NCBI GenBank assembly: GCA_048938105.1
Contig: JBHLMN010000025.1
Span: 1 to 64,000, forward strand
DNA length: 64,000 bases
Origin: Promethearchaeota archaeon
GTDB taxonomy: Archaea > Asgardarchaeota > Heimdallarchaeia > Hodarchaeales > Hodarchaeaceae
Direction: 5' to 3'
The first letter of the stretch is position 1, and every line of letters starts with the position of its first letter. The translations under genes were made by a program, and so were the position numbers. Shown here piece after piece: positions 20,394 to 43,879 of this stretch. The notes below the pieces were generated by a model. That model had not been told where the DNA came from, made no database searches, and saw only the letters and a program-made list of their open reading frames with translations.

Positions 20394-21785
20394 ATGAATG
20401 ACCAAGAAGAAATACTAATACAAAAAACTAGATGGAATAGTCGCAGGTTTCTCCTTTTGTATTGGTTCGCTTTCGTTTTCGTAGGAACTGCAGCAGCAGC
20501 TGGTTTAGGAACTAGTGTTCTAAATCCTAAAATAAAGATTAACAAAGTCGATCACAGTTCGCTCAACTTACCAAGTGAATGGGGTCCAGAAGACTGCACA
20601 GGTTCCATGTGTCATAATGATACAGTCGCTTCCTGGAATGAGACAGGCCATTCAAGAGCTGGGACTCTCTTGCCAAATGGCTCATGGCTTGTAGGAGACG
20701 ATCATATCTACAACGATTCCTTTTTCCGCTCCTGTTATGGAGGTGATGAAGCATTAATTCAATGCCATACTACTCGATACAACGAAACAGATGGAACCTA
20801 CTGGACTGGAACCAACGGTGTTAGCTGTGCGGCGTGTCATGAAGAACCAGGTATGATAGATTATGCAGCTGACAACTGCCAAATCTGTCACGAGTATTCA
20901 AATAATAATATAACTGGAGACTATCAGATGAGTGCACATAGTAAATCATATGAAGATTTGTTAGCAGGTGGATATGCACCTAGCAGCTGTTTACACTGTA
21001 TGACTGGTCAAGGGGTATATATGGATGTGACAGGTCAAGAAGACATCTTGACTTCGATAAACTGTGGAACTTGTCATGATCCACATGATGCAACTAATGA
21101 AGCCCAACTCAGAGAAACCGAGGTTAATGAACTTTGTGGCACTTGTCACAGTAGTACAGTAGAAGTATTCGAGGATTCCCGCAATAAACACTTGAACTAC
21201 GTAGATGAAGCTTGTGCTTCATGTCATGGATATCAGCTAGACCCTAAACCCTGGAACCCCAATAATGCGAGGATTAACCATTCATGGACGATTAATTTCG
21301 AAGATGCCTGTGGACAATGTCACACAGGTCAAGTCGACACACGAAAAGACATGTTAAATTATATCCAGGGGAACTTCGAATCTCTGAATGCCACATACTA
21401 CACCCAACTCGCTAATGTCACTGCTAAAGTTGATGAAGCAAATGGGACAGCTGGAGTGGATCTGTGCACAATCGAAGATGCGTATGCTCTGATCGAAGAA
21501 GCTGAAGAACTGATTTATCCAGTTGAACATGATGGAAGTTATGGTTTCCATAATCCCACAATGATGGAAGATAATTTTGCACTGGCCCTAGCCAAACTAG
21601 ATGAGGCATATGTTAAAGCCGAGACTGCTATTGGTGGTGAACAAACTAGTTCTACAAGCACTACTGGATCTACTAGTTCAATTACAACTTCAGGTGGTAC
21701 ACCTGGATTCGAGTTGTCCACTATCTTGGCAGTAATCAGCCTCGTATCAACAGCAACAATCTTATTACACAGAAAGAGACGCTAA
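20394..21785 (+). CDS. Cell-surface multiheme cytochrome c (NrfA/c552-like clade), copy 1, with PGF-type sorting tail
   Basis: Six CXXCH plus CX4CH, CX9CH and CLHCM; helical C-domain with DGSYGFHNP; Ser/Thr linker; TPGFE-TM-RKRR. Confidence 0.9.
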   Translation: MNDQEEILIQKTRWNSRRFLLLYWFAFVFVGTAAAAGLGTSVLNPKIKINKVDHSSLNLPSEWGPEDCTGSMCHNDTVASWNETGHSRAGTLLPNGSWLVGDDHIYNDSFFRSCYGGDEALIQCHTTRYNETDGTYWTGTNGVSCAACHEEPGMIDYAADNCQICHEYSNNNITGDYQMSAHSKSYEDLLAGGYAPSSCLHCMTGQGVYMDVTGQEDILTSINCGTCHDPHDATNEAQLRETEVNELCGTCHSSTVEVFEDSRNKHLNYVDEACASCHGYQLDPKPWNPNNARINHSWTINFEDACGQCHTGQVDTRKDMLNYIQGNFESLNATYYTQLANVTAKVDEANGTAGVDLCTIEDAYALIEEAEELIYPVEHDGSYGFHNPTMMEDNFALALAKLDEAYVKAETAIGGEQTSSTSTTGSTSSITTSGGTPGFELSTILAVISLVSTATILLHRKRR

Positions 21786-21819
21786 ACACTTGGTTGGATC
21801 CATCTCTAAAATAAAAAAC

Positions 21820-21856
21820 GATAACAGCTCATTCGCTGTTATCTTTACCCTTTTTC
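21820..21856 (+). terminator. Hairpin plus T-tract downstream of cytochrome 1
   Basis: GATAACAGC-tcattc-GCTGTTATC followed by TTTACCCTTTTT. Confidence 0.6.
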
Positions 21857-22016
21857 CAGAAGTGTGGGGAATGAGGAAGGTTTCGTTGTAAAACATGAGT
21901 CTATCGAGCTTGCTTGAAGTGTTTTCCAAGATTTAATTTTTGCTTTTAAAACTGGTACTTTTTCAATAATCCGCTATAAATTACGATTGTCTTGATACCC
22001 CTTCAGAAAAACTGAG

Positions 22017-24191
22017 ATGATTAAATATATGCAAAATAGTTTATCTACACTACTAAAGTGTAATCAAAGGTATCTTTTCTTGCCTTTACTAGTATTACTT
22101 ATCATAATCCCTTCGATTATGATGTTATCTCCGACTAGTAAAAGGTTGGATTTTGTAGAGTCTCAAAAAAATACTTCTAGTATTTCTCCTAAAGTGAGTA
22201 ACAACGAACAAGACAACAATCCTGATGCTTATTTTCCAAATTTTCTTTATTATTCAATTTCAGTGGCAAATGCCCTGATTGATTACTTATACGACAATGA
22301 TTCTGGTGGATTCTTCCGCTCAGTTAACCAGTTCTGGTCTAATAATTCCATTAATATGTTGAAATATTCTTATGATCAAGCACAAGCTATTCTTGCATTA
22401 TTAAAACTTTCTGATGCTGTAATTAATGATTCTGAACGTGATTTTGCGATTCATTTTGCTGAATTAATCGGTAATTATATGATAACACGTCTTTATGACA
22501 ATGAAGTTGGAGGATTCTATACATCCACTAGTAGTTCATATAAAAAGCCAGGAGTGAATGGAAAAGTTATTCAGTCTCTCCTCTCCCTATACAAGACCAC
22601 TGGCAACATTTCTTATAGAGATAAAGCAATTGAAACTTTTGAGTTTATAGACAATTTTGGTTGGGATAGTGAAAGTGGTGGTTATGTTTATCTACTGTCT
22701 CATAGTGGTCTCATTGCATCATCGAATCCCAGTTCAGCCGATCCTTATGATCCTAACTCAAAAAAAGTAGATCATAATGCTATTATGGGGGAAGCCTTAC
22801 TTGAACTATATCTTTTAACTTCTGATCCTTCATACATTTCTAAAGCAACAGAACTTTACCAGTTAATCAACACCTCTTCCAGAGACTATACCACTGAATT
22901 GTTCTATATTGGATTTAACAATGGTGGAATTGTTGAGCCGGATTATACTGACATTTTTATAAATTCCCTGATGCTAGAGTTTCTATCTCAGCTCTACAAC
23001 ATAACTGGGGATTTGACTTACTTTTATGATTTTCAATCTTTAATAAATGCTGTTCTTTTAAATTTTTGGGACTCTTCCAATGGAGGATTTTTTGCCACAT
23101 TCCCCTATAATAGTCAAGTTGAGAAAGACGAGAAGAAATACACAGAGAGGCAATTTTATGCAATTAGAGCTCTTGATGAGGCCTACAAGTTGACAAACAA
23201 TAACTTATATTATAATCTCATTCTGGATGTAATGGAATTTCTAAATAATAATCTCTATGATAATGTTCATGAGGGATACTACCTATTAGCAAACGCTGAT
23301 GGAACAGAAGGAGAACAAAACTGGAAAGATAAATATTCTGTTACTCAATCCCTAGCTATCTACGAATTAGCCAATCTCTGGCTTTATAGTAAGCCTAGTG
23401 TTCTCAATGCTCTCTGGTCCCCTTTAAATCCACGACCTTCAGATGCTGTTACGATTAGGATTGCAGCGTTTGATGCGGATGGTCTTTCCACCGTATTGTT
23501 GAATTATTCTATGAATAACCAACCCTACAAGTTAATAGAAATGACCACCAATGAACTAATAGGGAATATGTATGATTTTACCTTTGATTCTCAACCACAT
23601 GGCACAACAGTGAATTTTAACATCATTGTTAATGATACCTTAGGGAATATCGTTGTTCGAGAGTCATATTTCTTTGTTTGGGAGAATGATATTTTACCTC
23701 CTCATATTATGTTATTGGGAATAAATCCAAGTAACGAGATTTTTGTCAGTTCTAATTTTAGTATAACTGTGAGTGTACATGATAATCCTCCCCAAGGAGA
23801 TGTCACGAGTGTTCGTATGTATTATAAAGAAACGGGTCAATCAAAGTGGGCATCCAGGGCATTATTTCGGTTAGGTGATTATTTGTGGAGGATAGAATTC
23901 CCCGATGGTTTCAAAAAACCTAATAGATATGAATACTTCTTTGAAGCAATTGATAATCGAGGAAATTTTGGATTTAGTCCTTATTTTTACTTAGAAGTCT
24001 ATGGCCATCCAAAAAACTTCCCATTAACTGCATTTATTGGTGGCCTTTTTTTCATATTATTTATTGTTCCTGCAGGGATTATTGTTTACAAAGAATACAG
24101 TAAAAATAGTGCTCGTACAACCTTAAGAAACATTAAGAAGACACGCAATGTAAAACGGAGGAAAAAGAGAGGGACAAGACGTATAACGTAG
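22017..24191 (+). CDS. Membrane-anchored (alpha/alpha)6-barrel protein (AGE/YyaL-SPATA20-like) with Ig-like domains, copy 1
   Basis: Repeated LYD...GGF[FY] barrel motifs, KY.YDQA, two beta-rich domains, N- and C-terminal TM segments, basic tail. Confidence 0.75.
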   Translation: MIKYMQNSLSTLLKCNQRYLFLPLLVLLIIIPSIMMLSPTSKRLDFVESQKNTSSISPKVSNNEQDNNPDAYFPNFLYYSISVANALIDYLYDNDSGGFFRSVNQFWSNNSINMLKYSYDQAQAILALLKLSDAVINDSERDFAIHFAELIGNYMITRLYDNEVGGFYTSTSSSYKKPGVNGKVIQSLLSLYKTTGNISYRDKAIETFEFIDNFGWDSESGGYVYLLSHSGLIASSNPSSADPYDPNSKKVDHNAIMGEALLELYLLTSDPSYISKATELYQLINTSSRDYTTELFYIGFNNGGIVEPDYTDIFINSLMLEFLSQLYNITGDLTYFYDFQSLINAVLLNFWDSSNGGFFATFPYNSQVEKDEKKYTERQFYAIRALDEAYKLTNNNLYYNLILDVMEFLNNNLYDNVHEGYYLLANADGTEGEQNWKDKYSVTQSLAIYELANLWLYSKPSVLNALWSPLNPRPSDAVTIRIAAFDADGLSTVLLNYSMNNQPYKLIEMTTNELIGNMYDFTFDSQPHGTTVNFNIIVNDTLGNIVVRESYFFVWENDILPPHIMLLGINPSNEIFVSSNFSITVSVHDNPPQGDVTSVRMYYKETGQSKWASRALFRLGDYLWRIEFPDGFKKPNRYEYFFEAIDNRGNFGFSPYFYLEVYGHPKNFPLTAFIGGLFFILFIVPAGIIVYKEYSKNSARTTLRNIKKTRNVKRRKKRGTRRIT

Positions 24192-24208
24192 TGAATGGAG
24201 AAATTACA

Positions 24209-26422
24209 ATGATTTATATTGATTTTGGAGCTTTTGGGATGGATTTAGGTATGTTGATATTGCTTTTTAGCCTAGTAGCCCTTTTGATTGATGTCTTTTT
24301 AGTGATTTATGGTGGATACATTGAAAAATGGGAAATTTATTCAGAAATAAGCCTTTCTGCTGGTATTCTGGCTATTATCATCTCTTTCCTATATTTTAGT
24401 TATTCAGTTATAACAGCTGATTATCACTTCACCTATGTGAGTGATCATATTAACAATGATATGGACTTTTTCTTAAGACTATCAGCCATTTGGTCTGGAC
24501 AGTCTGGATCTTATTTCTTTTGGACATTTCTAGTTGTAATGGTTTATTCAATCTTCAGGCTGATGTTCAAAGAGTACGCGCATGAGACAATCTTTTGGCG
24601 AGCGTTTGTCTTATCAGCTCTTCAAACATCTGTTTTGGTGGCCTTAACACTGCTAAGTGATCCGTTTAAAATAAATGATGGTGTTTTTTCCGATGGTATT
24701 GGATTAAATCCATTATTAATGACGTATTGGAATCTCATACATCCTCCAATTGTTTTCATTGGTTATGCTCTATGTTTAATTCCAATGGTCATTGGAATAA
24801 CAAGAATCTCTATTCTTAAAAATGGTGAGTTGCCAGAATTTGAAGGTAAAGAAAAATTAGATAATTTCTTTGAATTTTTAGTTTCATTTGCATGGCTTAT
24901 ATTAAGCCTTGGAATAATAATTGGTGCTTATTGGGCTTATATGACTCTCGGTTGGGGTGGTTTCTGGGCATGGGATCCCGTAGAAACAGCTTCGTTGATA
25001 CCCTGGCTTTTTATAACCCTTTATTTCCATGGAAAACCTTTTTTTGGCAAAACTAAATACCTAGAAAATTACATTATTAGCATGAGTTACATTGGTGCTT
25101 TGTTTACTACATATTTAACAAGAAGTAATATAATTTCAAGTGTACACGCATTTCAATCCGAAGCAACTTTAGAAAATATTCTAAAGATTTTTATCCCAGA
25201 AAATAGTTTTTTTATGTCCATTATATTGCGATTCATTCCTGATGAGAAGATGTTATTACTTTTTATTGTCATAATAAGCACTTTTCTTATCCCACATTAT
25301 TTTGGAATTAGGAGTAAGGATATAACAAGGATTCCAATCTATTTTGAAAGAAAAGATTTTCAAGGATCAAGATCTCATATAACTGCCTTAAAAATCTCCT
25401 TTATTTCAGGTCTTATAGGTTCTTATATTATCATCATAGGTTTGATAACCCCTACTATTTATGATATTGTTGGATATATAATCACTTTCAGTCCAGAGGG
25501 AGTTGGTTCAAGCATTGTTGTAGACCAATTGTATTTTAATACAGTTATAACGATTTTTGGAGGTATAATGTTACTTGCGCAGTTTTTCTGTACTTTTTAT
25601 CCGAGATTGGATGTTAAGAAGAAGTTTATGTTAATGATAGGAGGATTAACAGCAGGAATCACATTTTCAATAGGAGGTTTCTTATATCGAAGTGGTTTTC
25701 TTAATCAGATTCTTGGAGACAAAAACCTAATACTTCTCTTATTCAATAACTTCTGGACAACTAGTGACAAAGCAAACTTAGTAATTCCTCTTCTATTTCT
25801 GGGAGTGGTTGGATTGCTAGTAGAGTTTTTAAAAGTGGCTTTTAAAGAAGAAAAGAATGTTATCCGAAAAACATCGCAAATACTGTTACATCTTTCTTTC
25901 TTAGTAATTCTCCTTGGTGCATTAATGAGTGCAAATATGACTGTTTCTAGTCAAATTTTGGGTCAAGAAGGAGGTGAATATAAAATTCCAGGAACTTCTG
26001 TAACAATTATTATTATAGATTTAGATAGAAGATTTCCTGAATCAGGTTTCAATCGAGTCGAATATGATACACAATTCATGTTGTCATCAGATGCACGAAT
26101 CATTGCATTTGGAATCAGTAGACTCGCTTATGATAAGATAAACCGAATGGATCATGAGGTGACAATAATTAACGATCTCTTTTCTAACATTTACATCGTA
26201 ACTAGTGGGGTTTTTGAAAACCCCATTTCTGGAATTTTTGAGGCTGCTTCCCTCCAGATTAAAGTTATACCATATATTAACATTTTGTGGGTAGGATGTC
26301 TTCTCCTCCTTTTTGCTATCCTCCCCTTGACCATAGGGAGATTTATTATCCTGAAAAAGACCTTATCTTTTAGAGAAATAGAACAGAAAGATGTTAAAAC
26401 GAAAATAGTGCCAATTAAATGA
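24209..26422 (+). CDS. ccmF: Cytochrome c heme lyase CcmF, copy 1
   Basis: GLNPLL, IHPP, WAY.TLGWGGFWAWDPVETAS (WWD domain), SSVHAF, LLHLS. Confidence 0.93.
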   Translation: MIYIDFGAFGMDLGMLILLFSLVALLIDVFLVIYGGYIEKWEIYSEISLSAGILAIIISFLYFSYSVITADYHFTYVSDHINNDMDFFLRLSAIWSGQSGSYFFWTFLVVMVYSIFRLMFKEYAHETIFWRAFVLSALQTSVLVALTLLSDPFKINDGVFSDGIGLNPLLMTYWNLIHPPIVFIGYALCLIPMVIGITRISILKNGELPEFEGKEKLDNFFEFLVSFAWLILSLGIIIGAYWAYMTLGWGGFWAWDPVETASLIPWLFITLYFHGKPFFGKTKYLENYIISMSYIGALFTTYLTRSNIISSVHAFQSEATLENILKIFIPENSFFMSIILRFIPDEKMLLLFIVIISTFLIPHYFGIRSKDITRIPIYFERKDFQGSRSHITALKISFISGLIGSYIIIIGLITPTIYDIVGYIITFSPEGVGSSIVVDQLYFNTVITIFGGIMLLAQFFCTFYPRLDVKKKFMLMIGGLTAGITFSIGGFLYRSGFLNQILGDKNLILLLFNNFWTTSDKANLVIPLLFLGVVGLLVEFLKVAFKEEKNVIRKTSQILLHLSFLVILLGALMSANMTVSSQILGQEGGEYKIPGTSVTIIIIDLDRRFPESGFNRVEYDTQFMLSSDARIIAFGISRLAYDKINRMDHEVTIINDLFSNIYIVTSGVFENPISGIFEAASLQIKVIPYINILWVGCLLLLFAILPLTIGRFIILKKTLSFREIEQKDVKTKIVPIK

Positions 26423-26433
26423 GAGTACATGAA

Positions 26434-26826
26434 ATGATTAGATCTAAAAACCTTATGTTCGCTATAATTATAATGTTTGTAAGTGTAAGTGCATTATTGT
26501 TTCTATTAAGTAGTTCCAGTGTTCCAGTTTTTTCCGTAAAAGAACTTAAAAGCCATTCCCAACCCAGTTCTTTCTTAAATCATAATATTCAAGTGGTAGG
26601 TGTCGTTCAGGATATAAATAGTACTGGTTTTTTTATAACAGATCCAGAGGATGTAACAAATTCATCCTTGATTATATACATTAATGCGACTAATGTAGAA
26701 AAGCCTGTAGGTTTTGAATCTGGAAAAACTATTCTCGTTGAAGGAAAACTCATTTCAACAACAGGTATGTGGAAGCTAAAAGCGTCAATGATTAGCACTA
26801 AGTGTCCATCTAAGTACACAGAGTGA
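26434..26826 (+). CDS. ccmE: Heme chaperone CcmE (CXXXY, System I* type), copy 1
   Basis: N-terminal TM, P.GF..G..V.VEG, KCPSKY. Confidence 0.9.
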   Translation: MIRSKNLMFAIIIMFVSVSALLFLLSSSSVPVFSVKELKSHSQPSSFLNHNIQVVGVVQDINSTGFFITDPEDVTNSSLIIYINATNVEKPVGFESGKTILVEGKLISTTGMWKLKASMISTKCPSKYTE

Positions 26827-26875
26827 GATCTTTTCTTATCAAGAAATATAGAGTAAAGTGTTAAAGTGAGTATAA

Positions 26876-27364
26876 ATGAACATCCAATCAAAGAAAGTAA
26901 ATGATGAAAGTCTTGAATGGAGTGGAGAGTTTAAGCAATTCTTAAAGGAATGGTTCTCTGGGTTAATAGCTGGAATTGAAAGATTGAATGATAGTACTTG
27001 GCCTATGATTTTAGAGTTAACGGGTCGTGCTTGTGCACGAATCCATTCTAATGCATTATTTTGGGAGATTTGGGAACTTACCCGTAACCTTGATGATTTC
27101 ATTGAAAAAGTTAATGAAATATATAAAGAAAAAGTCTTTGAGATTATTGACAAGGATACTATCTCTGTATGTTATTCTAAATGTAATTGCCCATTAGTCG
27201 AACATGGTTTAGTAGACTCACCTCTCCTGTGTAATTGTTCCCCAAACTGGTTAGCAGAGAATTTTGAATCAATTCTTAAAAAATCAGTAATAATAACCAC
27301 TAAAAATACGATTTTAAGAGGAGCAAAGAGTTGTAATTTTATTATTTCTATTGAAAGCGAATAA
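26876..27364 (+). CDS. Cys-rich V4R/DUF6144-like protein
   Basis: GRACA, CNCP, CNCS, RG...C.F pattern. Confidence 0.65.
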   Translation: MNIQSKKVNDESLEWSGEFKQFLKEWFSGLIAGIERLNDSTWPMILELTGRACARIHSNALFWEIWELTRNLDDFIEKVNEIYKEKVFEIIDKDTISVCYSKCNCPLVEHGLVDSPLLCNCSPNWLAENFESILKKSVIITTKNTILRGAKSCNFIISIESE

Positions 27365-28140: not shown

Positions 28141-28329
28141 TCTGAAGATATGATTAGCAAATCTTTGGTTATTTTTATCAATGTAAATAATGTTAACATA
28201 CTTACAGGATTTGAATCTGGAAAAACTGTACTGGTAGAAGGAAAACTCATCTCAACATTTTATACATAGTTCCTTAAAGCTACAATGATTAATACCTAAT
28301 GTCTGTTTAAAAATAAAAATGAATTATGA
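28141..28329 (+). pseudogene. ccmE: Degraded third ccmE copy (3' half)
   Basis: Translates SEDMISKSLVIFINVNNVNILTGFESGKTVLVEGKLISTFYT*FLKATMINT*CLFK, colinear with both CcmE proteins; stops at 28267 and 28297. Confidence 0.85.
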
Positions 28330-28415
28330 GGAACTAGTCTTGATAACTAATAAATTTCAATGAAACCTAAACTGGATTTTTTTATCATAGTAATTTGTAT
28401 TGCCATCCTGAACTA

Positions 28416-28795: not shown

Positions 28796-29749
28796 TTATG
28801 GGAGAAAAGAAGTAATGACCACTCCCACAAATAACCAGAGAAATGCAAATGCCATAAAAATTGATGCCAGTTTGAAGATCTTAAATGTCCTTTCATGAGA
28901 TGGTTTTCTAAGATTAGTAAATGCTTGAAAAAGGATGAATAAACAAAAAAGAATTAAAGGGAGAAGAGCGAGAAGATTAATTTCTAGACTGATCCCAGCT
29001 AGAACAATGATTGAAGCACTAAGAATAGCTGATAATGTTACAACACGAATTGTTTGGGTTTGACTACTGACTACAGGCCACATGGGGACACCGGCATTCT
29101 TATATCCCTCTAGGTTCTTGGGGATAAGAGCTAGAGTAAGAATATGCAAAGGAATCCAACAGAGAACAAAAAGCCCCATCAATATTGCAGTCAGATCAAT
29201 TATTCCAATCACTGCAGCTCGCCCCGCAACAGCTGGGAGTCCTCCTGCAACACCCCCAAAAATTATAGATAACCGTGTTCGTCGTTTTAACAAAAGTGAA
29301 TAAACAACAACATCAAAAAAAAACCCTAAGAAGACAACAACCATTGTAAGAAAATTAACAAATATTCCCACCACCAGAGTACCTGCAGCTGTGAAGAGAA
29401 TTCCGTGTTTTAACACAGTCGAAGGAGGAACTCTTCGACTGGGTAAAGGACGATCTCTTGTTCTTTCCATAAGTGCATCAATATTACGATCTACGTACAT
29501 ATTAAGCAATGTGGAGCCAGAAATTGCAAAAAAAAGCCCAACAACAAACCAAATGAATGACAATAGGTTGAAGCTTGCGCCCCAAGCGGTTATTAGATGA
29601 GCAAAAATTGCAGTATATAGAAGAAGAAATGTTTGTTTGCTTTTGATAAGTTCCCCGTATGTAGAAAGAGAAAGAGGGGGGTATGAATATTTTACCAATT
29701 CTTCATGTTCCAGTTGTTGTTGGGGAATTTCCATTTCATCCATCAACAA
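28796..29749 (-). CDS. ctaB: Protoheme IX farnesyltransferase (heme O synthase)
   Basis: N.Y.DR.ID..M.RT..RPLP, Y...LKRRT, GG.AG, W.P.H, Y..AGVPM.PV. Confidence 0.92.
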   Translation of the reverse strand: MLMDEMEIPQQQLEHEELVKYSYPPLSLSTYGELIKSKQTFLLLYTAIFAHLITAWGASFNLLSFIWFVVGLFFAISGSTLLNMYVDRNIDALMERTRDRPLPSRRVPPSTVLKHGILFTAAGTLVVGIFVNFLTMVVVFLGFFFDVVVYSLLLKRRTRLSIIFGGVAGGLPAVAGRAAVIGIIDLTAILMGLFVLCWIPLHILTLALIPKNLEGYKNAGVPMWPVVSSQTQTIRVVTLSAILSASIIVLAGISLEINLLALLPLILFCLFILFQAFTNLRKPSHERTFKIFKLASIFMAFAFLWLFVGVVITSFLP

Positions 29750-29781
29750 GCCATTCCATAATTACTCAATTGAATAGGGTA

Positions 29782-31365
29782 TTATTCTGGGAACTCCTTA
29801 ACATCTTTTCTTCCTTTGAGAATCTGGATGAGCTGATGGAAACAAAAGATGGTAATTGCAATGACAAAAAGCATTATTCCAAAATCAATTATAAGATTAA
29901 TTAAAGATAGATTGGGTAGTAAAGGCATATTGTGAAGCCAGTAATCCAGTACATCATCGTATTTATCTAATTCTGCCGCCCAAGTCTGATCAAAGTGGGG
30001 AAAATACATATAGATCGCTGTAGGAAGAAATGCCATGATGCTACCAGCAAAAGACAGCCAACCCATTGCTATTCGTGGCTTACCTTGAATATCTAATATG
30101 TCAATGAAGAAAAGGAGGAGGAGGATCGCTGATAACACAGCTAAAACGTGCCAATGACCACGGGCAACCGTATCTTCGATAGCTACAGGGCCCGATCGAA
30201 ATGATACCATACCTGTTACCCTCGTCAAAATTGAATCATCGCGAAGACTAAGCGCAAGGAATATACCTGTAAAAGTCATTACGAAATTTACCCATATGAA
30301 TAAGAAATATAACGTAAGTTTCACAGGATCTTTGAACACAGCTTTTGCACGAGTAAGCCAGGATGCAGATCCATAAGAATCACCAAGGATTTCCTTACTC
30401 GTTTTATTCCAACCAGTTAATGCCAATATTAAACCAACAGTTACGAGAATTGCTGAGCCTGCATAAATTAGATAATGAATATCAACATCAGCGAATGAAT
30501 GAATCCACTCGGAGATTGTAACAAGCCAACATCCTATTGACATGATGATAAATCCTGGAATAGCAAGTAACATTGAAATAAGATACCACTTCCCCTTTTG
30601 ATCTGGAACAGTGTACCGATATACAACTAGTAAGATAATCACATCGATAAGTCCCAACATTATATGTAAATGACCCTTAATCCCATCAACAAATATAACT
30701 GGGTAAGTAATATAGTCATATTCTCTAAGAAAATATTCTGCTTGTAATACTGTCAATCCATTACCGAAGAAAGCTCCTATTGACGCTCCGAGTACAACAC
30801 TTGCTAAGATACAGATAGTAAGTAGTGCTAATGCAAGTTGTGCGACAAAAATATTCCTACCTGTATCTGGATCTCGTCTTGGGAAGGTCCTGGTTGGGAA
30901 AACACCGATAAGTAACATGATACCCGCATAGAAACAAAGAGACATCCCTACCAAGAACAGACCATGTAATATCCACGCCTCTGGAAGAATATACGCAAAA
31001 ATCAGTGCATTCGCAGAAGCTAAAATACTCCCAATAAATAAAGGCCATTTCACGCGCGATCTAAACTTCTCCCGAACATCCATGAATTCCAGAACAAAAT
31101 ATGTACATACAGCAATGAATGGAACCGAGATTGCATGATAAACCATAATTATACGGCCCGCTTTTTCAACTGGATCGGGGTCTAATGTCATCCAAGGCTC
31201 TACATTTAAGAGTCCCGTTATTGGTTCAGAAAAGGTCGATAAAAAGAGAACAATACAGAACTCCCAAACAATCGTAAAAGTTATCATTCCTTTATAGGTC
31301 AGACCATAATTGATTTTGTACTTTAACCAGGGAATAATTCCTTCTTCTTTTACTTCAGTCGTCAT
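29782..31365 (-). CDS. Polytopic membrane protein with heme-copper-oxidase-like His pattern, function unknown
   Basis: About 12 TM; VYHA (TM2), GHLH, ARGHWHVL; 32 bp upstream of ctaB on the same strand. Confidence 0.6.
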   Translation of the reverse strand: MTTEVKEEGIIPWLKYKINYGLTYKGMITFTIVWEFCIVLFLSTFSEPITGLLNVEPWMTLDPDPVEKAGRIIMVYHAISVPFIAVCTYFVLEFMDVREKFRSRVKWPLFIGSILASANALIFAYILPEAWILHGLFLVGMSLCFYAGIMLLIGVFPTRTFPRRDPDTGRNIFVAQLALALLTICILASVVLGASIGAFFGNGLTVLQAEYFLREYDYITYPVIFVDGIKGHLHIMLGLIDVIILLVVYRYTVPDQKGKWYLISMLLAIPGFIIMSIGCWLVTISEWIHSFADVDIHYLIYAGSAILVTVGLILALTGWNKTSKEILGDSYGSASWLTRAKAVFKDPVKLTLYFLFIWVNFVMTFTGIFLALSLRDDSILTRVTGMVSFRSGPVAIEDTVARGHWHVLAVLSAILLLLFFIDILDIQGKPRIAMGWLSFAGSIMAFLPTAIYMYFPHFDQTWAAELDKYDDVLDYWLHNMPLLPNLSLINLIIDFGIMLFVIAITIFCFHQLIQILKGRKDVKEFPE

Positions 31366-32625: not shown

Positions 32626-33096
32626 ATGAATAATTACTCAGAAGATGAATGCTCTGCTATGGTCGCTATCAAGATTCTTGGACGGAAGTGGATTCCTTGG
32701 ATTGTGTGTGAACTCTTATCAGCGGGAGAACTATTCTTTTCTGACCTCCTAGACAGAATTGAAGGAACTTATGGGGAAAAAATATCCGCAAGAGTCTTAT
32801 CGGAGTCTTTGTCCAGGTTAGAAGAGATGAACTTATTAGAACGTACGGTAGTTAGCGAAACAATGCCCATTAGAGTGAGATACTCCTTGACTCCTAAAGG
32901 AACAGATCTTCAGGTAGTTTTTGCGGTTTTAAAGGGGTGGGGAATAAAATGGGGAGACATTCGTCAGAAAAGATGTCGTTCATTCAGTTGTATTCATAAT
33001 TGTGTTCCAATGATTGATATTGATAAAGCAGCAGGTTTGTTGGAACTAAGAGATCCAGAATCACCCCCTCTGAATAAGATTGAGGATTCTTCTTAG
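32626..33096 (+). CDS. HxlR-family winged-helix regulator with N- and C-terminal Cys
   Basis: C...A..ILGRKW, F..L, ISARVLS..L..LE, P.RV.YSLT.KG..L, W G. Confidence 0.9.
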   Translation: MNNYSEDECSAMVAIKILGRKWIPWIVCELLSAGELFFSDLLDRIEGTYGEKISARVLSESLSRLEEMNLLERTVVSETMPIRVRYSLTPKGTDLQVVFAVLKGWGIKWGDIRQKRCRSFSCIHNCVPMIDIDKAAGLLELRDPESPPLNKIEDSS

Positions 33097-34202: not shown

Positions 34203-34351
34203 AGTAAGGGAAAAAACCAGAATAAAAATCATCCTAAAAATATACTACAAAAAGCTTTGAAATTAAGATGTTAATTACTTCCCGAGAATTACAGCGCTAT
34301 CCCACACGATTTATTAAATTCACAATTACACTAAGCCTATAAACAACCTTG

Positions 34352-34484
34352 CATGTTATCGGGTTACTTTCTGTTTACTTGATTATTGAAAACTTAGAAA
34401 ACACTTCTTATTGAAGGAGGGTGCCTTTTAATAGAGCCCCCTGAAATTTCAATGATCATTCTGATGATTGATTGATATTTCAAA
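34352..34484 (+). promoter_or_regulatory. Shared upstream element, copy C
   Basis: catgttatcgggttactttctgtttacttgattattgaaaacttagaaaa; hairpin at 34442-34482. Confidence 0.75.
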
Positions 34485-35907: not shown

Positions 35908-36126
35908 AGAACTAGACTCCAATCATCTCATCTTTCCCCAAGATTGCTATTTGTTTATTTTGTGATTCAAATTTTCTCATTTTTATTTCCAGAATTATTA
36001 TTAAAATAATCATGTTCAAAGGTGTAGAAGACAACCAAACCTACTCTGACTTAGAATTCCATAGGTTCTCTGCTATTATACCTCAACACAGGGTACTCTA
36101 ATGATGATAATTTCGAGTATTTTTTA

Positions 36127-36253
36127 CATGTAATCAGGTTACTTTCTACTTACTTGATTATTGAAACCTTAGAAAATCTTCTAAAAGTCGTAGGATGTTC
36201 TTTATCAGACTTGAAATTTCCTTAATCTTTCTTATGATTAATCGAAATTTCAA
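36127..36253 (+). promoter_or_regulatory. Shared upstream element, copy D (cytochrome cassette 2)
   Basis: catgtaatcaggttactttctacttacttgattattgaaaccttagaaaa; strong hairpin at 36211-36253. Confidence 0.75.
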
Positions 36254-36337: not shown

Positions 36338-37900
36338 ATGAATGACCAAGAAGAGATCTTAGTACGCCAAAGTAAGTGGAACGGTCGCAGAGTTGTATTG
36401 CTCTACTGGTTTGCTATTGTCTTCATTGGAACAGCAACAGCTGCTGGTGTTGGAGCTGGTGTTTTAAATCCAAAATACCAGTTTAAAGTGGAACAATACA
36501 CCCATGACGATAAATTCGGCGATGGAACTATCTGGCATCCCGAAGAATGTGCTACTTGCCATCCAGCGGAATACGAAGGTTGGAACCAAACTCTCCACTC
36601 TTATCTTTTCGCTGAGTATAATGAATCTTATTTGATTCATTATAGCGGTACTTACCAGAACACAACCGCATTCCTGGAAAGTAAAGGCTGTTGCCATGTA
36701 ACAAATTGGTACAATGATACTTCTGTTGACCCTTCAGGTGAACTTAAAGTTTGGGATTATGGAGTGACTTGTGCAGCTTGTCACGAGGATCCGGATAATG
36801 GATTTGATCCCGTGGGTTATATGCCATTCGGTCCAGCATCCTACCCCTGTGGTGGTTATGGTATGAAGGGTATGCCACTATGTCATATCCCCCGTGGTGT
36901 TTCTCAGTTTGATATGATTGGTCCTCACTCCCAAGCGCTCGATGATTTGCTTGCTAGTGACGATATAGACGATTCTTGTCTCCATTGTATGACTGGAAAT
37001 GGTCTTGTCTATGGTTATGGCCCAGGTGAAAACAAAAGCTATGAGTACGGAGAACTTATCGGTATCGAGTGTTATGTATGCCACAATCCTATGGGTGTTT
37101 CCAATGAACTGTATAAAGAGGATAAATATCCTAATCTTACTCTTAATTCTACACTGAGAGCAAATAGTATTCCTGAACTTTGTGGAGAATGTCACAGCGG
37201 AGATTACGACTCATCTTATGCAATGATAACAGATACTACTGTTCAAGGTCCCCATTCAAACTTCGATTGCACACAATGTCATGGATATTACTTAGATCCT
37301 GCAACTGAGTCGCAAAATGCTTCTTTTGAGCTCAATCATACATGGACACTCAAACTTCCTGATGCGTGTGCTACTTGCCATCTTCCTACGGGTACAAACA
37401 TGAGTGCTCTCAATGCCACAATAATGGCAACTACTATGGAATCTAGGATGGAGCTCCTTGAGGGCATCCAAGAAGATATTGCAGCATTAGTAGATACAGT
37501 TGAAACTGAGATAACAGCCACCACCACCAAAGCAGACGAAGCTGCAGCAGTTTCAGGTGCTGATGAGGATGAAATCGCTGAAATTTACCTCTTGATTGAA
37601 GAAGCTAAAGCCTTGGTCGAGTTTGTTGAAGCCGATCCAGCAGGTGGATTCCACAATCCTGATCTCACGGAAGTAAAACTACAGTTGGCATTGACTAAGT
37701 TATCTTGGGCGAAAACAGCTGCAGAAGCTATAATCACTCCCCCAGGTACCACCACTGAAGAACCGTTAACAGTAACCAAAACCACACATGCAACTGAAAC
37801 TATAACTGAAACCACAACTGCAGCAGCAACAGCTATTGGTATCTTAGCAGTACTCAGTATCCTCAGTGCAACCGTTCTTTTCCAGAAAAAAAGGCGTTAA
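36338..37900 (+). CDS. Cell-surface multiheme cytochrome c (NrfA/c552-like clade), copy 2
   Basis: Six CXXCH plus CCH, CX10CH and CLHCM; DPAGGFHNP; Thr-rich linker, TM, KKRR (no PGF). Confidence 0.9.
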   Translation: MNDQEEILVRQSKWNGRRVVLLYWFAIVFIGTATAAGVGAGVLNPKYQFKVEQYTHDDKFGDGTIWHPEECATCHPAEYEGWNQTLHSYLFAEYNESYLIHYSGTYQNTTAFLESKGCCHVTNWYNDTSVDPSGELKVWDYGVTCAACHEDPDNGFDPVGYMPFGPASYPCGGYGMKGMPLCHIPRGVSQFDMIGPHSQALDDLLASDDIDDSCLHCMTGNGLVYGYGPGENKSYEYGELIGIECYVCHNPMGVSNELYKEDKYPNLTLNSTLRANSIPELCGECHSGDYDSSYAMITDTTVQGPHSNFDCTQCHGYYLDPATESQNASFELNHTWTLKLPDACATCHLPTGTNMSALNATIMATTMESRMELLEGIQEDIAALVDTVETEITATTTKADEAAAVSGADEDEIAEIYLLIEEAKALVEFVEADPAGGFHNPDLTEVKLQLALTKLSWAKTAAEAIITPPGTTTEEPLTVTKTTHATETITETTTAAATAIGILAVLSILSATVLFQKKRR

Positions 37901-37944
37901 ATCTAGATAACAAATTTCGCATCATAGTTCATTTCCAAAGCAAG

Positions 37945-37983
37945 AACAGCAGTTTTCTGCTGTTTCTTTTGCCTTTTTTTTCC
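37945..37983 (+). terminator. Hairpin plus T-tract downstream of cytochrome 2
   Basis: AACAGCAG-tttt-CTGCTGTT followed by TCTTTTGCCTTTTTTTT. Confidence 0.6.
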
Positions 37984-38141
37984 AAGTGTTCGGGAGCTGA
38001 GGTAAGTATCGCTTTTTTTGCTTTCTATGATATTATCTCTAATTTAAAAGAATTAAAAGAAACTAATTCCCGTCTTATCATAAAATAACTGCCTTCATCA
38101 TAAAATAATTGTGTGAAATTACTAAAGAGATGGAATAATTC

Positions 38142-40379
38142 ATGATAAATAAAGTAAATATCCAAGTTATTTCTCTAAGAGAATGGTTGTTATATTTCTT
38201 CATATCTATATTAATATTAGGTACAACTCTACCAAGTATTACGTCTTTTACTCAAATAAATTTCACTTTTATTACTATGGAGAATAATAATCAGAAACTG
38301 TCTTGGAATCATGGCATCAAACCTGATATAAAGCCTCTTTTCCCTTTTAAATCGGTAAATCTGGTTGAAGACAACCCAGAAGCATATTTTCCAAACTTTC
38401 TTTATTATTCTGTTGAAATTGCGAATACTCTTATTGATCATTTATACGACAATAAATCTGGTGGATTCTATCGTTCCGCTGATCAGGAATGGTCTAATAA
38501 TAGTATAAATAGACTGAAATATTCTTATGATCAAGCTCAAGCGATTATTGCACTACTAAAACTATCAAATGCCGTAATTAATCAAACAGAAAGGGAATAT
38601 GCTATTAAAATTGCAAAGAGAACAGGAAAATGCTTAATCACTGATTTACTTGACGTTCAATTTGACGGATTCTTTATTAGTGAGTCAAACAGACTTAAAA
38701 AACCTGGAGTTCAAGCAAAAGTAATTCAGGCACTTCTTTCTCTTTACAAATTAACAGAAAATCTTACCTATCGAGACATGGCTATTAATACTTTTAACTT
38801 CCTAGAAGTCGACGCATGGGAAAATATCGACGAGAATAAAGGATATTACAATTATCTATTGTCTCACACAGGTTTGATCGCTACGTCAAATCCAGAGACA
38901 GAGGATCTATATGAACCCAAGGCAAAGCGAGTAGATCATAATATATTAATGGGTGAAGCATTACTAGATCTTTACCATATAGAATCAGATGAGATATACT
39001 TAAGATATGCTAGGCGAATTTATAATTTCTTTAATACCACATGTAGGAATAGTACTACTGGGCTATTTTATACTGGATTAAATGACAATAATGAAATTGT
39101 AGAAAATAGGTCAGCTGATTTATTCATTAATTCCCTTGTGCTTGAATTTTTAGCTCATTTATATACTGCCACTGAGGAGCAGAAATATTATGATGATTTC
39201 TTTACCTTATTATATAGCGTATTAGGTAATTTTTGGGACGATTTATATGGGGGTTTTTATAAAACTTATTCTTATGTAGGGCCTGAAGCAAGAGACAAAA
39301 AGAAACACACAGAAAGACAATTTTACGCTATTAGAGCTCTTGATGAAGCGTACAAACTTACCAACAATAGTCTATACTATAACCTTATTTATGACATGAT
39401 GGAATTTTTAACTAATAAACTCTATGACAATGAGAACTTCGGATATTTTCAAGAGGTTAATCAGGATGGAACAGAAGGACAACCATACTGGAAAGACAAA
39501 TATGCTGTAACTCAATCCTTGGCTATCTATTCATTCGCAAATCTCTGGTTGTATAGTAAACCAGGTGTTCTTAATGGAGTTTGGTCACCCTCAACACCCC
39601 TAGCTGATCAAGATTCAGTGACCATTTCAGTTGCTGCTTTTGATTCTGATGGGCTATCAAATGTTCTTTTCAATTATTCAATAAATAATGATCCATACAA
39701 ACTTGTAGAAATGGTTCCACATAAGCTTATTGGGAATATGTTTGAAACCATGATGGAAGCCCATCCTGATGGTACAACAGTCAATTTTAATATCATTGTC
39801 AATGATACTTTTGGTAACAAAATTGTTCGTGGTTCCTATTTTTTCCTTTGGCAGATTGATGTTTGGGCTCCTCAAATCTTCGTAATTAGTATTGATCCTG
39901 GAATTGAAATCCCAGTCCACAAAAACTTTTCGATTATTGTAACTGCACAAGATGTGCCTTCGCAAGGTAGTGTTGAATATGTGCGCATGTATTATCACCT
40001 TGCAAATAAGCCTGAAGAAACAATTTCTTTAAAACAAATGAGTATCGGATCATATTATTGGAAAGCATCTTTTTCTGAAGGAATCCCAACACCTGGCACA
40101 TATTTATATTATTTTGAAGCAATAGATAATAGGGGGAACCCTGGATTTAGCTATACTAGCTCTTTTTCCATTCTAGGCTACCTAGAAACGCTACCTGCAT
40201 CACTTGTATTTGGTGTACTACTTCTAATACTTGTTTTCATTCCTGCGGGGCTCTATACATATGTGGAATTTAAGAAAAAGAGTGCAAGAAAAACATTAAA
40301 GAATATAAAGAGGGCACGAAACCGGAAAGGGAGAGGAAAGAGAGGAGCAAAAAGAATTAGAAGCACAAAGGAGAAATAA
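38142..40379 (+). CDS. Membrane-anchored (alpha/alpha)6-barrel plus Ig-like protein, copy 2
   Basis: Full-length paralogue of 22017-24191 (NP.AYFPNFLYYS, KYSYDQAQAI, TERQFYAIRALDEAYKLT). Confidence 0.75.
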   Translation: MINKVNIQVISLREWLLYFFISILILGTTLPSITSFTQINFTFITMENNNQKLSWNHGIKPDIKPLFPFKSVNLVEDNPEAYFPNFLYYSVEIANTLIDHLYDNKSGGFYRSADQEWSNNSINRLKYSYDQAQAIIALLKLSNAVINQTEREYAIKIAKRTGKCLITDLLDVQFDGFFISESNRLKKPGVQAKVIQALLSLYKLTENLTYRDMAINTFNFLEVDAWENIDENKGYYNYLLSHTGLIATSNPETEDLYEPKAKRVDHNILMGEALLDLYHIESDEIYLRYARRIYNFFNTTCRNSTTGLFYTGLNDNNEIVENRSADLFINSLVLEFLAHLYTATEEQKYYDDFFTLLYSVLGNFWDDLYGGFYKTYSYVGPEARDKKKHTERQFYAIRALDEAYKLTNNSLYYNLIYDMMEFLTNKLYDNENFGYFQEVNQDGTEGQPYWKDKYAVTQSLAIYSFANLWLYSKPGVLNGVWSPSTPLADQDSVTISVAAFDSDGLSNVLFNYSINNDPYKLVEMVPHKLIGNMFETMMEAHPDGTTVNFNIIVNDTFGNKIVRGSYFFLWQIDVWAPQIFVISIDPGIEIPVHKNFSIIVTAQDVPSQGSVEYVRMYYHLANKPEETISLKQMSIGSYYWKASFSEGIPTPGTYLYYFEAIDNRGNPGFSYTSSFSILGYLETLPASLVFGVLLLILVFIPAGLYTYVEFKKKSARKTLKNIKRARNRKGRGKRGAKRIRSTKEK

Positions 40380-40381
40380 TA

Positions 40382-42643
40382 ATGATTTACATTGGATTTG
40401 GAATGGATTTAGGCATGATTGTGTTGATTGTAGCTCTAATAGCACTTTTACTCGACGCTATCATTGTTCTTTCTGGAGAACATATAGAAAAGTGGGAATC
40501 TCTTTCAGAGCTCTGTCTTACTGTTGGTATCACAGCTATTATCATCTCTTTTGGCTATTTCAGTTATTCAGTCATTTCTGTTGATTATAGCTTTTCTTAT
40601 ATAAGTGGGTATGTTAATAATGACATGGATCTTTTCTTGAGGCTATCAGCTATTTGGTCTGGACAGGTTGGATCATATTTCTTCTGGTTATTTTTGGTTG
40701 CTCTTCTTTATGTGATCTTTAGGTCAATGTTCCGAAAATATGCACATGAATCTGTCATTTGGAAATCATTTGTAATGACGAATGTCCAAGTTATTGTGTT
40801 AACAGCATTAACCCTTTTTAATGATCCCTTCAAACTCAATATAAAGACTGTCACTGATGGTGTTGGACTTAATCCTATACTTTTGACTGAGTGGAATCTT
40901 ATTCATCCACCAATTATTTTTATTGGTTATGCCCTTTGCTTGGTTCCTATGGCCATTGGAATGGCTAGAATTTCTTCTCTTGAAGATGGGAAGGTACCAG
41001 ACTTTGAAGGTAAGGAAAAACTGGATAATTTCTTTGAATTTATGGTTTCACTTTCTTGGCTTGTTTTAAGCTCAGGAATAATAATTGGGGGATATTGGGC
41101 TTATGTAACTCTCGGATGGGGGGGTTTTTGGGCATGGGATCCTGTTGAGACGGCCTCCCTAGTGCCATGGTTTTTTATTACCCTTTATTATCATGGAAAA
41201 CCTATTCTTGGTAAACGGGAATACCTTGGCAATTACCTTGTAAGTATGAGCTACTTAGGTACCTTATTTGCCACATATTTAACTAGGAGTAATATTATAT
41301 CAAGTGTACACACATTTCAACCTGAAGCAACCTTAGAAAATATTCTAAAATTCTTCATTCCTACGAATAGCTTTATGATGAAGATTATCTTACGATTCAT
41401 ACCTGATGAATGGTTATTATTTTTATTCATTGTTCTAATTGTGACTTTTTTAATTCCCCACTATTACGGAATTAAGAGTAGGGAAATATTTCATATTCCT
41501 ATCTCACTTAATAAGAAAGATTTTCAGACTTCAAGATCCCGTATAACCGCATTGAAGATATCCTTCATTTCTGGTCTTTTTTGTTCTTATATCATCATCA
41601 TAGGCTTGTTAACACCTGTTGTTTTTGACATTATTGGTTATTTTATTACTTTTAGTCCGAAAGGATTTGGATCAAGTATTATTATCGATATGGTGTTCTT
41701 TAATACAGTTATAACTATTTTTGGAGGACTAATGCTGCTTGCACAGTTTTTCTGTACTTTTTATCCTAGATTAAGCCTTAAGAAGAAGTATAGTCTCTTG
41801 ATAGGTGGGGTAATAGCTGGACTCACATTTTCAATATCTGGTTTTTTTTATCGGAATGGTTCTCTTAATCTGATTCTAGGTGAAAACAACCCTATCCTTG
41901 TTTTTTTAAGTAATTTCTGGACTACTAGTGATAAAGCAAACTTGGTTATTCCTCTTTTATTTCTGGGAATTATAGGATTGATTATCGAATTTATTAGAGT
42001 AGCATTGAAGGAAGAGAAAAATCTCATCCGTAAAACATCTCAAATAATGTTACATTTCTCTTTTTTAGTAATTCTTCTTGGTGCCTTACTGAGTGCAAAT
42101 ATGACATTTTCAACTGAGATACTTGTTCAAGATGGTGGTGAATATCCAATTGAAGGCACTTCAATTAAGATTACTATCCTTGAGCTAGTTAGAGAATATC
42201 CTACTTCAGGCCCACTTGATGTTGAGTATATTACTAAATTCATGCTATCCTCTGACACACGGGTCATAGGATTTGGAATCAGCAAATTAGTCCGTCATAA
42301 GCGGTGGATTAACCCTTCAGATGAATTATCAGGTTACAATGCCAAAGTGACAATTATAAGTGATCTTTTTTATGATATTTACATTATTACTGCTGGTTTT
42401 AATCAAAATCCATTAATTGGTTTTACAAATTCTCTTCTTCGAATAAAAATTGTACCGTATATTAACATTCTATGGTTGGGATGTCTTTTCCTTCATTTTG
42501 CTATGATTCCTTTAACTATAGGGAGATTTATCCTCTTAAAAAGGGCTTTTTCACCAGTTGGAAAGGAATCAGATAAATTTAATTCTAAAAGTGGCACCTC
42601 AGAGAACGAAAACGTTGTTAATGGTGGTAATGAAAATGGTTAA
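40382..42643 (+). CDS. ccmF: Cytochrome c heme lyase CcmF, copy 2
   Basis: IHPP, WGGFWAWDPVETAS, SSVHTF, MLHFS. Confidence 0.93.
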   Translation: MIYIGFGMDLGMIVLIVALIALLLDAIIVLSGEHIEKWESLSELCLTVGITAIIISFGYFSYSVISVDYSFSYISGYVNNDMDLFLRLSAIWSGQVGSYFFWLFLVALLYVIFRSMFRKYAHESVIWKSFVMTNVQVIVLTALTLFNDPFKLNIKTVTDGVGLNPILLTEWNLIHPPIIFIGYALCLVPMAIGMARISSLEDGKVPDFEGKEKLDNFFEFMVSLSWLVLSSGIIIGGYWAYVTLGWGGFWAWDPVETASLVPWFFITLYYHGKPILGKREYLGNYLVSMSYLGTLFATYLTRSNIISSVHTFQPEATLENILKFFIPTNSFMMKIILRFIPDEWLLFLFIVLIVTFLIPHYYGIKSREIFHIPISLNKKDFQTSRSRITALKISFISGLFCSYIIIIGLLTPVVFDIIGYFITFSPKGFGSSIIIDMVFFNTVITIFGGLMLLAQFFCTFYPRLSLKKKYSLLIGGVIAGLTFSISGFFYRNGSLNLILGENNPILVFLSNFWTTSDKANLVIPLLFLGIIGLIIEFIRVALKEEKNLIRKTSQIMLHFSFLVILLGALLSANMTFSTEILVQDGGEYPIEGTSIKITILELVREYPTSGPLDVEYITKFMLSSDTRVIGFGISKLVRHKRWINPSDELSGYNAKVTIISDLFYDIYIITAGFNQNPLIGFTNSLLRIKIVPYINILWLGCLFLHFAMIPLTIGRFILLKRAFSPVGKESDKFNSKSGTSENENVVNGGNENG

Positions 42644-43034
42644 ATCCAAAAACGTCATAACTTCTGCAATTATCATCATAATATGTATAGGCGCATTTTT
42701 ATATCTATTAGCCAGCTCTTCTACTCCAATCTTCACTGTGAAAGAATTTATGGATCAACAGCAACTTGATTCCTATAAAAATCGTAAAATCCAACTAATA
42801 GGTGTTGTTCAACAAGTTAACAAAACAGGTTTCTTTATAACTGATCCTGATGATATAAATAACGCATCTTTGATTATTTATATTAATTCAACCAATGTAG
42901 AAAAACCTGTAGGATTTGAAACTGGGAAAACTGTCCTTGTTGAAGGAAAACTTATCTCAACAACTAGTATATGGAAGTTCAAAGCTACAATGATTAGCAC
43001 TAAATGTCCATCTAAGTATCAAGATGAAACATAA
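42636..43034 (+). CDS. ccmE: Heme chaperone CcmE (CXXXY type), copy 2
   Basis: KCPSKY; start ATG 42636 inferred from alignment with copy 1. Confidence 0.9.
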   Translation: MVKSKNVITSAIIIIICIGAFLYLLASSSTPIFTVKEFMDQQQLDSYKNRKIQLIGVVQQVNKTGFFITDPDDINNASLIIYINSTNVEKPVGFETGKTVLVEGKLISTTSIWKFKATMISTKCPSKYQDET

Positions 43035-43847: not shown

Positions 43848-43879
43848 AGCTGGCTGGAAATTAAGAGGTGATGATTATC

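Follow-up and report, generated by a model that had tools for sequence, protein, structure and literature searches.

Dedicated haem lyases are a known feature of System I cytochrome c maturation: the paralogue sets NrfEFG and SirEFG serve CXXCK or CX12-15CH sites, and CcmI and NrfG are adaptors built of tetratricopeptide repeats (TPR). To our knowledge, the components of System I are considered completely catalogued, and its archaeal version is viewed as a stripped-down CcmABCEF. The Asgard archaea are the closest archaeal relatives of eukaryotes. In Methanosarcina, CcmABCEF is required, and also suffices, for cytochrome c maturation (PMC9084895). A stretch of 64,000 nucleotides from a Promethearchaeota archaeon of the Hodarchaeaceae (assembly GCA_048938105.1, contig JBHLMN010000025.1, positions 1 to 64,000 of the forward strand; hereafter the window) lies on a contig, C50, of a 5.85-Mb Asgard genome that is 99% complete. 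The window contains two copies of a cassette in which a gene for a multihaem cytochrome is followed by one for a membrane-anchored protein with an (alpha/alpha)6 barrel and two immunoglobulin (Ig)-like domains (the barrel protein, or barrel), by the haem-lyase gene ccmF and by ccmE. The barrel gene stands between cytochrome and ccmF in about 50 other Asgard genomes as well, and the protein is therefore very probably a new helper or a new partner of that cytochrome, one or the other of the two. We found no description of this arrangement in the literature searched.

The strength of the linkage was assessed by comparing gene coordinates in 399 Asgard genomes. The barrel family gave 57 matches in 54 genomes, among them 16 of 20 congeners, 36 Thor-like genomes of family f31 and one of family f32, with 22-28% identity between groups. 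CcmF was detected in 88 genomes and the cytochrome family in 53, essentially the same set as the 54 with the barrel. Three matches at contig ends were left out; in the 54 informative places ccmF always adjoins the barrel gene, and in 53 of them it lies directly downstream on the same strand, the lone exception being G396, in which the two genes are adjacent but convergent. A cytochrome of the family is found upstream at every locus where the contig reaches far enough. Nine inspected loci and 24 named loci from metagenome-assembled genomes of Hodarchaeales, Heimdall-group and Thor members show the order cytochrome-barrel-ccmF every time, with ccmE joined to it in Hodarchaeales, 2-22 bp between barrel and ccmF, 3-22 bp when only the named loci are counted, and 87-283 bp between cytochrome and barrel. 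The original prediction, made from the letters of the window, had proposed this neighbourhood comparison and had named a usual lack of linkage as the outcome that would speak against it; the opposite was found.

The most distant full-length relative of the barrel among 1.8 billion representatives (P0107; E 4e-34) is itself flanked by the C-terminus of a cytochrome and by ccmF. A scan of 185,579 species, limited to a single pattern, returned barrel matches in Asgard genomes only, and a scan of the genome collection with P0107 returned no match. No orphan barrel was found in the Asgard survey, while five genomes contain cytochrome paralogues that have neither barrel nor ccmF, and orphan ccmF genes are present in G065, G070 and G347. 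The prediction that each cytochrome has its own lyase thus holds in the present genome but, given the orphan cytochromes, not as a rule. The single-contig Thor genome G318:C1 (L023), which is 86% complete, has a cytochrome of the family, with neither CcmF nor barrel detected. A mirror-tree comparison shows covariation of the barrel with each of its neighbours, and the partial correlation between cytochrome and CcmF, with the barrel controlled for, is about zero or negative; this evidence is weak, since any gene in the middle of a (recombining) operon would show such a pattern. Taken as a matter of gene context, a functional tie between the barrel and the cytochrome/CcmF module is as well supported as such context allows.

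Genes in the window were assigned from open reading frame (ORF) calls and Pfam profile matches, and on this basis cassettes A (20394-26826) and B (36338-43034) have the same gene order, as first claimed. Their features are the following.

20394..21785 (ORF 20364/20394), + strand: cytochrome A, matching Pfam multihaem families and the OcwA profile, with nine Cys-pair sites
21820..21857, + strand: hairpin and T-run, terminator- or attenuator-like, 3' of cytochrome A (9-bp stem, -12.9 kcal/mol)
22017..24191, + strand: barrel A, 724 aa, with N-terminal transmembrane helix, AGE-like (alpha/alpha)6 barrel, two Ig-like domains, C-terminal transmembrane helix and basic tail
24191..26422 (alternative start ATG 24209), + strand: ccmF A, haem lyase, 743 aa, with PF01578, CcmF_C, WWD motif and invariant His
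26419..26826, + strand: ccmE A, with CPSKY at the C-terminus
28141..28330, + strand: decayed third ccmE fragment with in-frame stops (repeat family D1, translation)
36338..37900 (ORF 36308/36338), + strand: cytochrome B, paralogue of A, with CCH, CX10CH and CLHCM sites
37940..37982, + strand: hairpin and T-run 3' of cytochrome B
38142..40379, + strand: barrel B, 745 aa
40382..42643, + strand: ccmF B, 753 aa
42558..43034 (likely start ATG 42621), + strand: ccmE B, with CPSKY at the C-terminus
43167..43847, + strand: single-copy ccmC (Pfam)
43868..44035, + strand: CcmD-like ORF, 55 aa, one helix
44112..44822, + strand: single-copy ccmA (Pfam)
44836..45525, + strand: single-copy ccmB (Pfam)

The ccmC-(D-like)-A-B set that comes after cassette B is the only one, each of its four genes being single-copy, in agreement with what had been noted at the outset. 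The gaps of 17 and 2 bp reported between barrel and ccmF are also correct, the former provided that ATG 24209 is the start of ccmF A, as a start at the GTG of 24191 would make the two genes overlap by one base. Compared between A and B, the cytochromes share 34% protein identity, the barrels 54%, the CcmF proteins 67% and the CcmE proteins 62%, and judging from these values the two copies are old. In-register DNA repeats link the cassettes at a spacing of about 16.16 kb. The duplication is atypical of the group, as most relatives have a single cassette and two are found also in G072, G073, G326 and G339. The ccmE relic at 28141-28330, interrupted by in-frame stops, still matches both ccmE genes at their ends with 62-73% DNA identity and is probably the remnant of a lost cassette.

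An AlphaFold2 (AF2) model of the barrel protein, built with an alignment of 27 relatives, has a mean predicted local distance difference test score (pLDDT) of 83, rising above 90 across the barrel domain. It consists of an N-terminal transmembrane helix, a disordered linker, a 12-helix (alpha/alpha)6 barrel (residues 73-456) and two Ig-like domains (466-555 and 563-662, 466-662 overall), and the protein ends in a transmembrane helix with an invariant Pro and a Lys/Arg-rich tail. Because of the positive-inside rule, most of the protein is expected to be extracellular; model, helices and rule agree with the membrane-anchored, extracytoplasmic barrel-and-Ig protein originally described. Foldseek, the search suggested for it, identified a sugar epimerase-type (alpha/alpha)6 fold, the top matches being epimerases (glucose and cellobiose 2-epimerases, AGE, YihS) and also GH76 enzymes. 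The barrel scores 33-34 bits against PF07221 (Pfam cut-off 23.4 bits), and by fold and sequence score it belongs to the AGE/cellobiose 2-epimerase superfamily. An Atlas feature search with the barrel gave scores below 0.9 and led only to generic six-hairpin glycosidases.

The active site of these enzymes is not retained. Alignments made with HMMER to solved epimerases slipped by whole hairpins because of the internal repeats, and active-site mapping was based on a global profile-profile alignment (hhalign) to 12 cellobiose-epimerase-like proteins (probability 99.8%). The residues that we take to be catalytic, on the basis of the literature and of the HDIE and YHxxR motifs and not of a structure superposition, are a first His in helix alpha8 (HDIE), which lies opposite T/A/S311 with its Glu opposite F314, and a second His in helix alpha12 (YHxxR), which lies opposite S/T/A441 with the Arg opposite Q444. 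The helix-6 His (H253) is the only His kept relative to the cellobiose-epimerase-like proteins, and the barrel thus lacks the two catalytic His and the Glu of the AGE superfamily; the intact glycosidase or epimerase active site that would have told against the original prediction is not there. The 27-sequence alignment contains no conserved Cys in the ectodomain, hence nothing like the LRCXXC thiol motif of CcmH/NrfF, and no adjacent conserved acidic columns such as the Asp-Asp pair of GH76, for which the Pfam score is at threshold or just under. The window barrels have no LANC_like match and, with no conserved Cys, lack the Cys-Cys-His zinc site that characterizes LanC along with GxxG repeats; the absence of LanC zinc motifs had already been noticed in the first reading. 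The barrel is thus not an epimerase, a GH76-type mannanase, a LanC-like enzyme or a thiol protein, because the catalytic His are replaced and no Cys or Asp-Asp pair is conserved. A LanC-like, thioether-forming role, one of the original suggestions, was rejected since there is no conserved Cys/His zinc site. The barrel protein does share the topology of CcmI and NrfG, being a membrane-anchored, extracytoplasmic helical-repeat protein encoded with CcmF, but its fold, from AF2 and Foldseek, is a closed barrel and not TPR.

The Ccm machinery of this genome is of the type known as System I*. Both copies of CcmE terminate in CPSKY, a CXXXY motif in place of HXXXY, and no match to CcmH (PF03918) was found anywhere in the genome. 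The sole redoxin-fold gene in the window (10733-11233) encodes a cytosolic peroxiredoxin and not CcmG, so that the reported absence of ccmG and ccmH from the window stands; a CcdA-like and redoxin gene pair lies on another contig. No c-type cytochrome other than A and B was found in the whole genome, and the entire Ccm set therefore serves these two. Of the view that the barrel is a new cytochrome-maturation component, the functional tie to the cytochrome/ccmF module is upheld by the near-absolute linkage in two to three Asgard families, whereas the proposal that it replaces CcmH or CcmI is not. Chemical replacement of CcmH is unlikely because the barrel has no thiol, and a general substitute for CcmH/I is not needed in archaea since CcmABCEF is sufficient in Methanosarcina. 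Replacement of CcmH as a general function was rejected also because 28 genomes of family f20, and other Asgard genomes, have ccmF and ccmABCE and no barrel.

The profile of the cytochromes matches OcwA (6I5B) over the full length (E 4.8e-40) and also an S-layer undecahaem cytochrome, and they have nine sites in the OcwA order, c554-like for haems 1-4 and NrfA-like for haems 5-9, with a C-terminal three-helix bundle. The AF2 model has a mean pLDDT of 60, with a low-confidence haem core and helices 314-414 above 90, and its Foldseek ranking was used only where the sequence profile concurs. On these profile features, cytochromes A and B are assigned to the OcwA-type nonahaem surface cytochromes. 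Cytochrome A has an N-terminal transmembrane helix, a Ser/Thr-rich linker and a PGF-CTERM-like anchor, and its sites include CX4CH, CX9CH and CLHCM. When the nine Cys-pair sites of 28 family cytochromes, including both window copies, were aligned (alignment A8), haem 1 proved to be CX2, CX4, CX5 or CX10CH; haem 2, CXXCH in Thor and CXXCM, CCH, CCM or CX9CH in Hodarchaeales; haem 4, CX2, CX3 or CX10CH; haem 5, CxHC[M/Q] in 22 of the 28; and haem 9, CX4-5 in Thor, CX2 in Hodarchaeales and, in a single sequence, CX13. In OcwA, which acts as a terminal reductase at the cell surface, haems 2 and 5 are open-site (PMC6703420), and departures from the canonical CXXCH are seen above all at these two haems. 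The cytochromes thus do carry non-canonical haem motifs such as the original prediction had referred to, and motifs of this kind could call for a dedicated lyase. The orphan paralogues L023 and L024, which have no barrel, carry a canonical CXXCH at haem 5. N-X-S/T sequons are enriched two- to threefold in the cytochromes (z 2.7-4.7), five to six of them being positionally conserved and some abutting haem motifs. The N-terminal cytoplasmic segment and transmembrane helix (MNDQEEIL...LLYWF...; 20394-20560 and 36338-36500) are about 80% identical between A and B, against 34% overall, and are conserved also in other Hodarchaeales copies; from this pattern the segment may be a targeting or recognition signal.

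Our preferred explanation, held tentatively and at a little under even probability, is by analogy with NrfG and CcmI: the barrel protein would be a cassette-specific accessory or adaptor that serves a single cytochrome family at the step catalysed by the haem lyase CcmF. It would be a bitopic ectoprotein with both ends in the membrane and its basic tail in the cytoplasm, produced from one tightly packed unit together with CcmF (and CcmE in Hodarchaeales). Its (alpha/alpha)6 barrel, derived from sugar epimerases and deprived of the catalytic His, would now act as a binding module, capturing the exported, N-glycosylated nonahaem cytochrome in its apo- or partly loaded form and keeping it at CcmF, where motifs with unusual spacing or a final Met (CXXCM, CCH, CX4-13CH) would receive their haems. 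Such a role would be akin to that of the helical-repeat substrate adaptors and unlike that of the thiol protein CcmH. Linkage, topology, fold, loss of the epimerase residues and odd haem motifs are observed; that the barrel would bind to both cytochrome and CcmF, and may affect haem attachment, we infer. That cytochromes and ccmF genes occur as orphans and the barrel does not is what one would expect if an adaptor depended on the two of them, and the unusual substrate, with its variable Cys spacing and CXXCM at OcwA haems 2 and 5, parallels the CXXCK of NrfA and its NrfEFG. The intergenic gap between cytochrome and barrel carries a hairpin and T-run in 8 of 10 loci, which groups the barrel with ccmF and not with the abundant structural (cytochrome) gene. 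Within Hodarchaeales (the window copies, L008, L009 and L016) the hairpin sequence is conserved: AGAACAGCAG...CTGCTGTTCT, T-run, GGTCGGGAG. It might serve in RNA processing or regulation and not merely as a terminator.

Several observations weigh against an adaptor of CcmF. In the clade of G396 and P0107 the barrel gene is co-oriented with the cytochrome gene and ccmF is convergent, and G347 has kept ccmF and lost both cytochrome and barrel. A search among longer proteins for a fusion of barrel and CcmF yielded none, the sole finds being giant Asgard proteins with multiple barrels. In Methanosarcina, cytochromes c are matured by CcmABCEF alone (PMC9084895), and in the AF2 model the two-Ig stalk may hold the barrel far from the periplasmic face of CcmF. 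A Thorarchaeota CcmF (L005:9664-12093, same record as L064) has a C-terminal TPR domain (TPR_16, E 4e-10; weak TPR_CcmH_CycH); on these matches it is a CcmF-CcmI-like fusion, and it coexists with the barrel. The last such observation concerns membrane-anchored, Cys-free LanC-like barrels, which in the Heimdall-group family f6 adjoin ccmF together with monohaem EB_dh/DOMON cytochromes. Most members of this LanC-like family neighbour EB_dh proteins that lack Cys, at loci that have no ccmF and lie within COX1/COX3, NrfCD-like or multicopper-oxidase clusters, which suggests that barrels follow surface haem proteins and not ccmF. A predicted complex of CcmF A (residues 1-725) with the Ig1-Ig2-transmembrane-tail part of the barrel protein (463-724, barrel domain excluded) scored 0.00, which counts neither for nor against an adaptor. 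CcmF proteins linked to a barrel were found to have no insertion peculiar to them.

The main alternative, nearly as likely as the adaptor explanation and on its own a plausible one-in-three kind of proposition, would give the barrel-Ig protein a lasting place beside the mature cytochrome: as a scaffold, stalk or sheath subunit it would stay with the cytochrome at the surface, in a reductase complex or one for extracellular electron transfer, and ccmF would be nearby only because the cytochrome needs CcmF. The LanC-like sister barrels are its main support, as they pair with DOMON/EB_dh proteins without ccmF, in one case in an NrfCD-like operon, and conserve structural Gly/Trp residues only, as a scaffold might. 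It accommodates equally the strict co-occurrence of barrel and cytochrome family (54 and 53 genomes), the loss of the barrel along with the cytochrome in G347, the orientation shared with the cytochrome where ccmF is on the other strand (G396/P0107), the sufficiency of CcmABCEF elsewhere (PMC9084895), and the fact that the nearest solved cytochromes, OcwA and the S-layer undecahaem protein, are cell-surface terminal reductases. A structural partner does not, however, fit well with the tight packing of barrel and ccmF and the terminator-like element that separates the cytochrome from them, with orphan cytochrome paralogues that have no barrel of their own, or with a barrel copy number that tracks the number of ccmF cassettes and not that of cytochromes.

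The LanC-like loci (L019:2278-8521, L028:3605-10896, L031, L032, L034 and L014) encode a signal sequence, a C-terminal transmembrane helix and a basic tail, and the EB_dh/DOMON surface proteins beside them bear PGF-CTERM-like anchors. A preprint has noted DOMON proteins in Heimdall oxidase clusters and does not mention the barrels (10.1101/2024.07.04.601786). Members of the LanC-like family occur in family f6 and in some Hodarchaeales. Together with the AGE-like barrels they might form an unrecognised Asgard class of membrane-anchored alpha/alpha-toroid ectoproteins, extracytoplasmic haemoprotein assembly factors that would work with CcmF on c-type cytochromes with non-standard motifs and alone on the b-type DOMON/EB_dh proteins of oxidase clusters, a generalization that we regard as doubtful. 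Next in similarity to the barrel family come giant proteins of Asgard archaea, roughly 2450 aa long (P0095, P0099, P0239; G319:C80, G311:C10), with several AGE-like barrels and Ig-like domains, and L040 encodes a 784-aa barrel-Ig paralogue with neither cytochrome nor ccmF nearby.

We consider it unlikely that the barrel is an active carbohydrate enzyme or a lectin with a new catalytic set, trimming or reading N-glycans on the cytochrome (quality control) or in the envelope. All its fold neighbours are sugar enzymes, the cytochromes are rich in sequons, and the Hodarchaeales and Thor barrels keep a set of polar and aromatic residues (Y119, D252-H253, D312, N316, K374, E377, Q379, W436) at the pocket-facing N-termini of inner helices. 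The P0107/G396 clade, whose gene linkage is the same, does not retain this set, the canonical AGE His are gone, the GH76-like Asp-Asp pair is not conserved, and a glycan-directed activity alone gives no reason for the constant adjacency to ccmF. That the barrel is an unrelated neighbour hitch-hiking in a mobile cytochrome cassette, to which the duplication, the patchy distribution and the turnover shown by the decayed ccmE fragment might point, is very improbable in view of an order, strand and spacing that are conserved where barrels share only 22-28% identity, and also in a more distant clade.

Between the two cassettes (28796-31365) lie a gene of the UbiA family (haem O synthase-like) and one for a 527-aa polytopic protein without Pfam match. 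A 53-nt direct repeat, 89% identical (34349-34401 and 36124-36176), is found 5' of a Big_7/Y_Y_Y gene and of cytochrome B, and an HxlR-type regulator gene (32626-33096) is located near it.

We know of no earlier link between the enzyme fold of the barrel and haem handling. An adaptor role would make the barrel a substrate adaptor of a new kind, for haem sites (CXXCM, CCH, CX4-13CH) with which standard lyases cope badly; a partner role would make it a new subunit of an OcwA-related archaeal surface electron-transfer complex. The answer would guide the production of unusual Met-ligated multihaem proteins. Compared with NrfEFG/SirEFG, the Asgard cassette likewise has a CcmF paralogue beside a cytochrome with odd motifs and a membrane-anchored, extracytoplasmic, all-helical repeat protein. 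It differs in that the putative helper is a closed (alpha/alpha)6 barrel with Ig-like domains and not an open TPR, and in that there is neither a CcmH/NrfF thiol protein in the cassette nor a second, housekeeping CcmF in the genome. Archaeal System I* (PMC9084895) shares the CPSKY CcmE, the absence of CcmH and the single-copy ccmC/A/B, whereas the present locus has an extra conserved gene between substrate and ccmF, duplicated CcmF and CcmE, and a CcmF that is one polypeptide of about 745 aa and not split. The AGE enzymes (8H1L, 3WKF; YihS) share the barrel fold (Foldseek E 5e-22, TM-score to target 0.75-0.84) with its repeated D-x-x-x-G-G-F hairpin motifs, but the Asgard barrel, with both catalytic His and the Glu replaced, is membrane-anchored, extracellular and joined to Ig-like domains. 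YyaL/SSP411 (SPATA20; 7TKV) offers an AGE-like barrel in a probable protein-handling context, although the sequence match is weak (E 4e-4) and the present barrel is without a thioredoxin domain or CXXC. Among solved proteins, the cytochromes are most closely related to OcwA of Thermincola potens (6I5B; PMC6703420), which has the same order of nine haem sites, the same C-terminal three-helix bundle and a surface location. The Asgard cytochromes are distinguished by transmembrane/PGF-CTERM anchors, by variable Cys spacing and by Met (or Gln) in place of the His that would follow the second Cys, a change seen at haem 5 and, in Hodarchaeales, at haem 2 as well.

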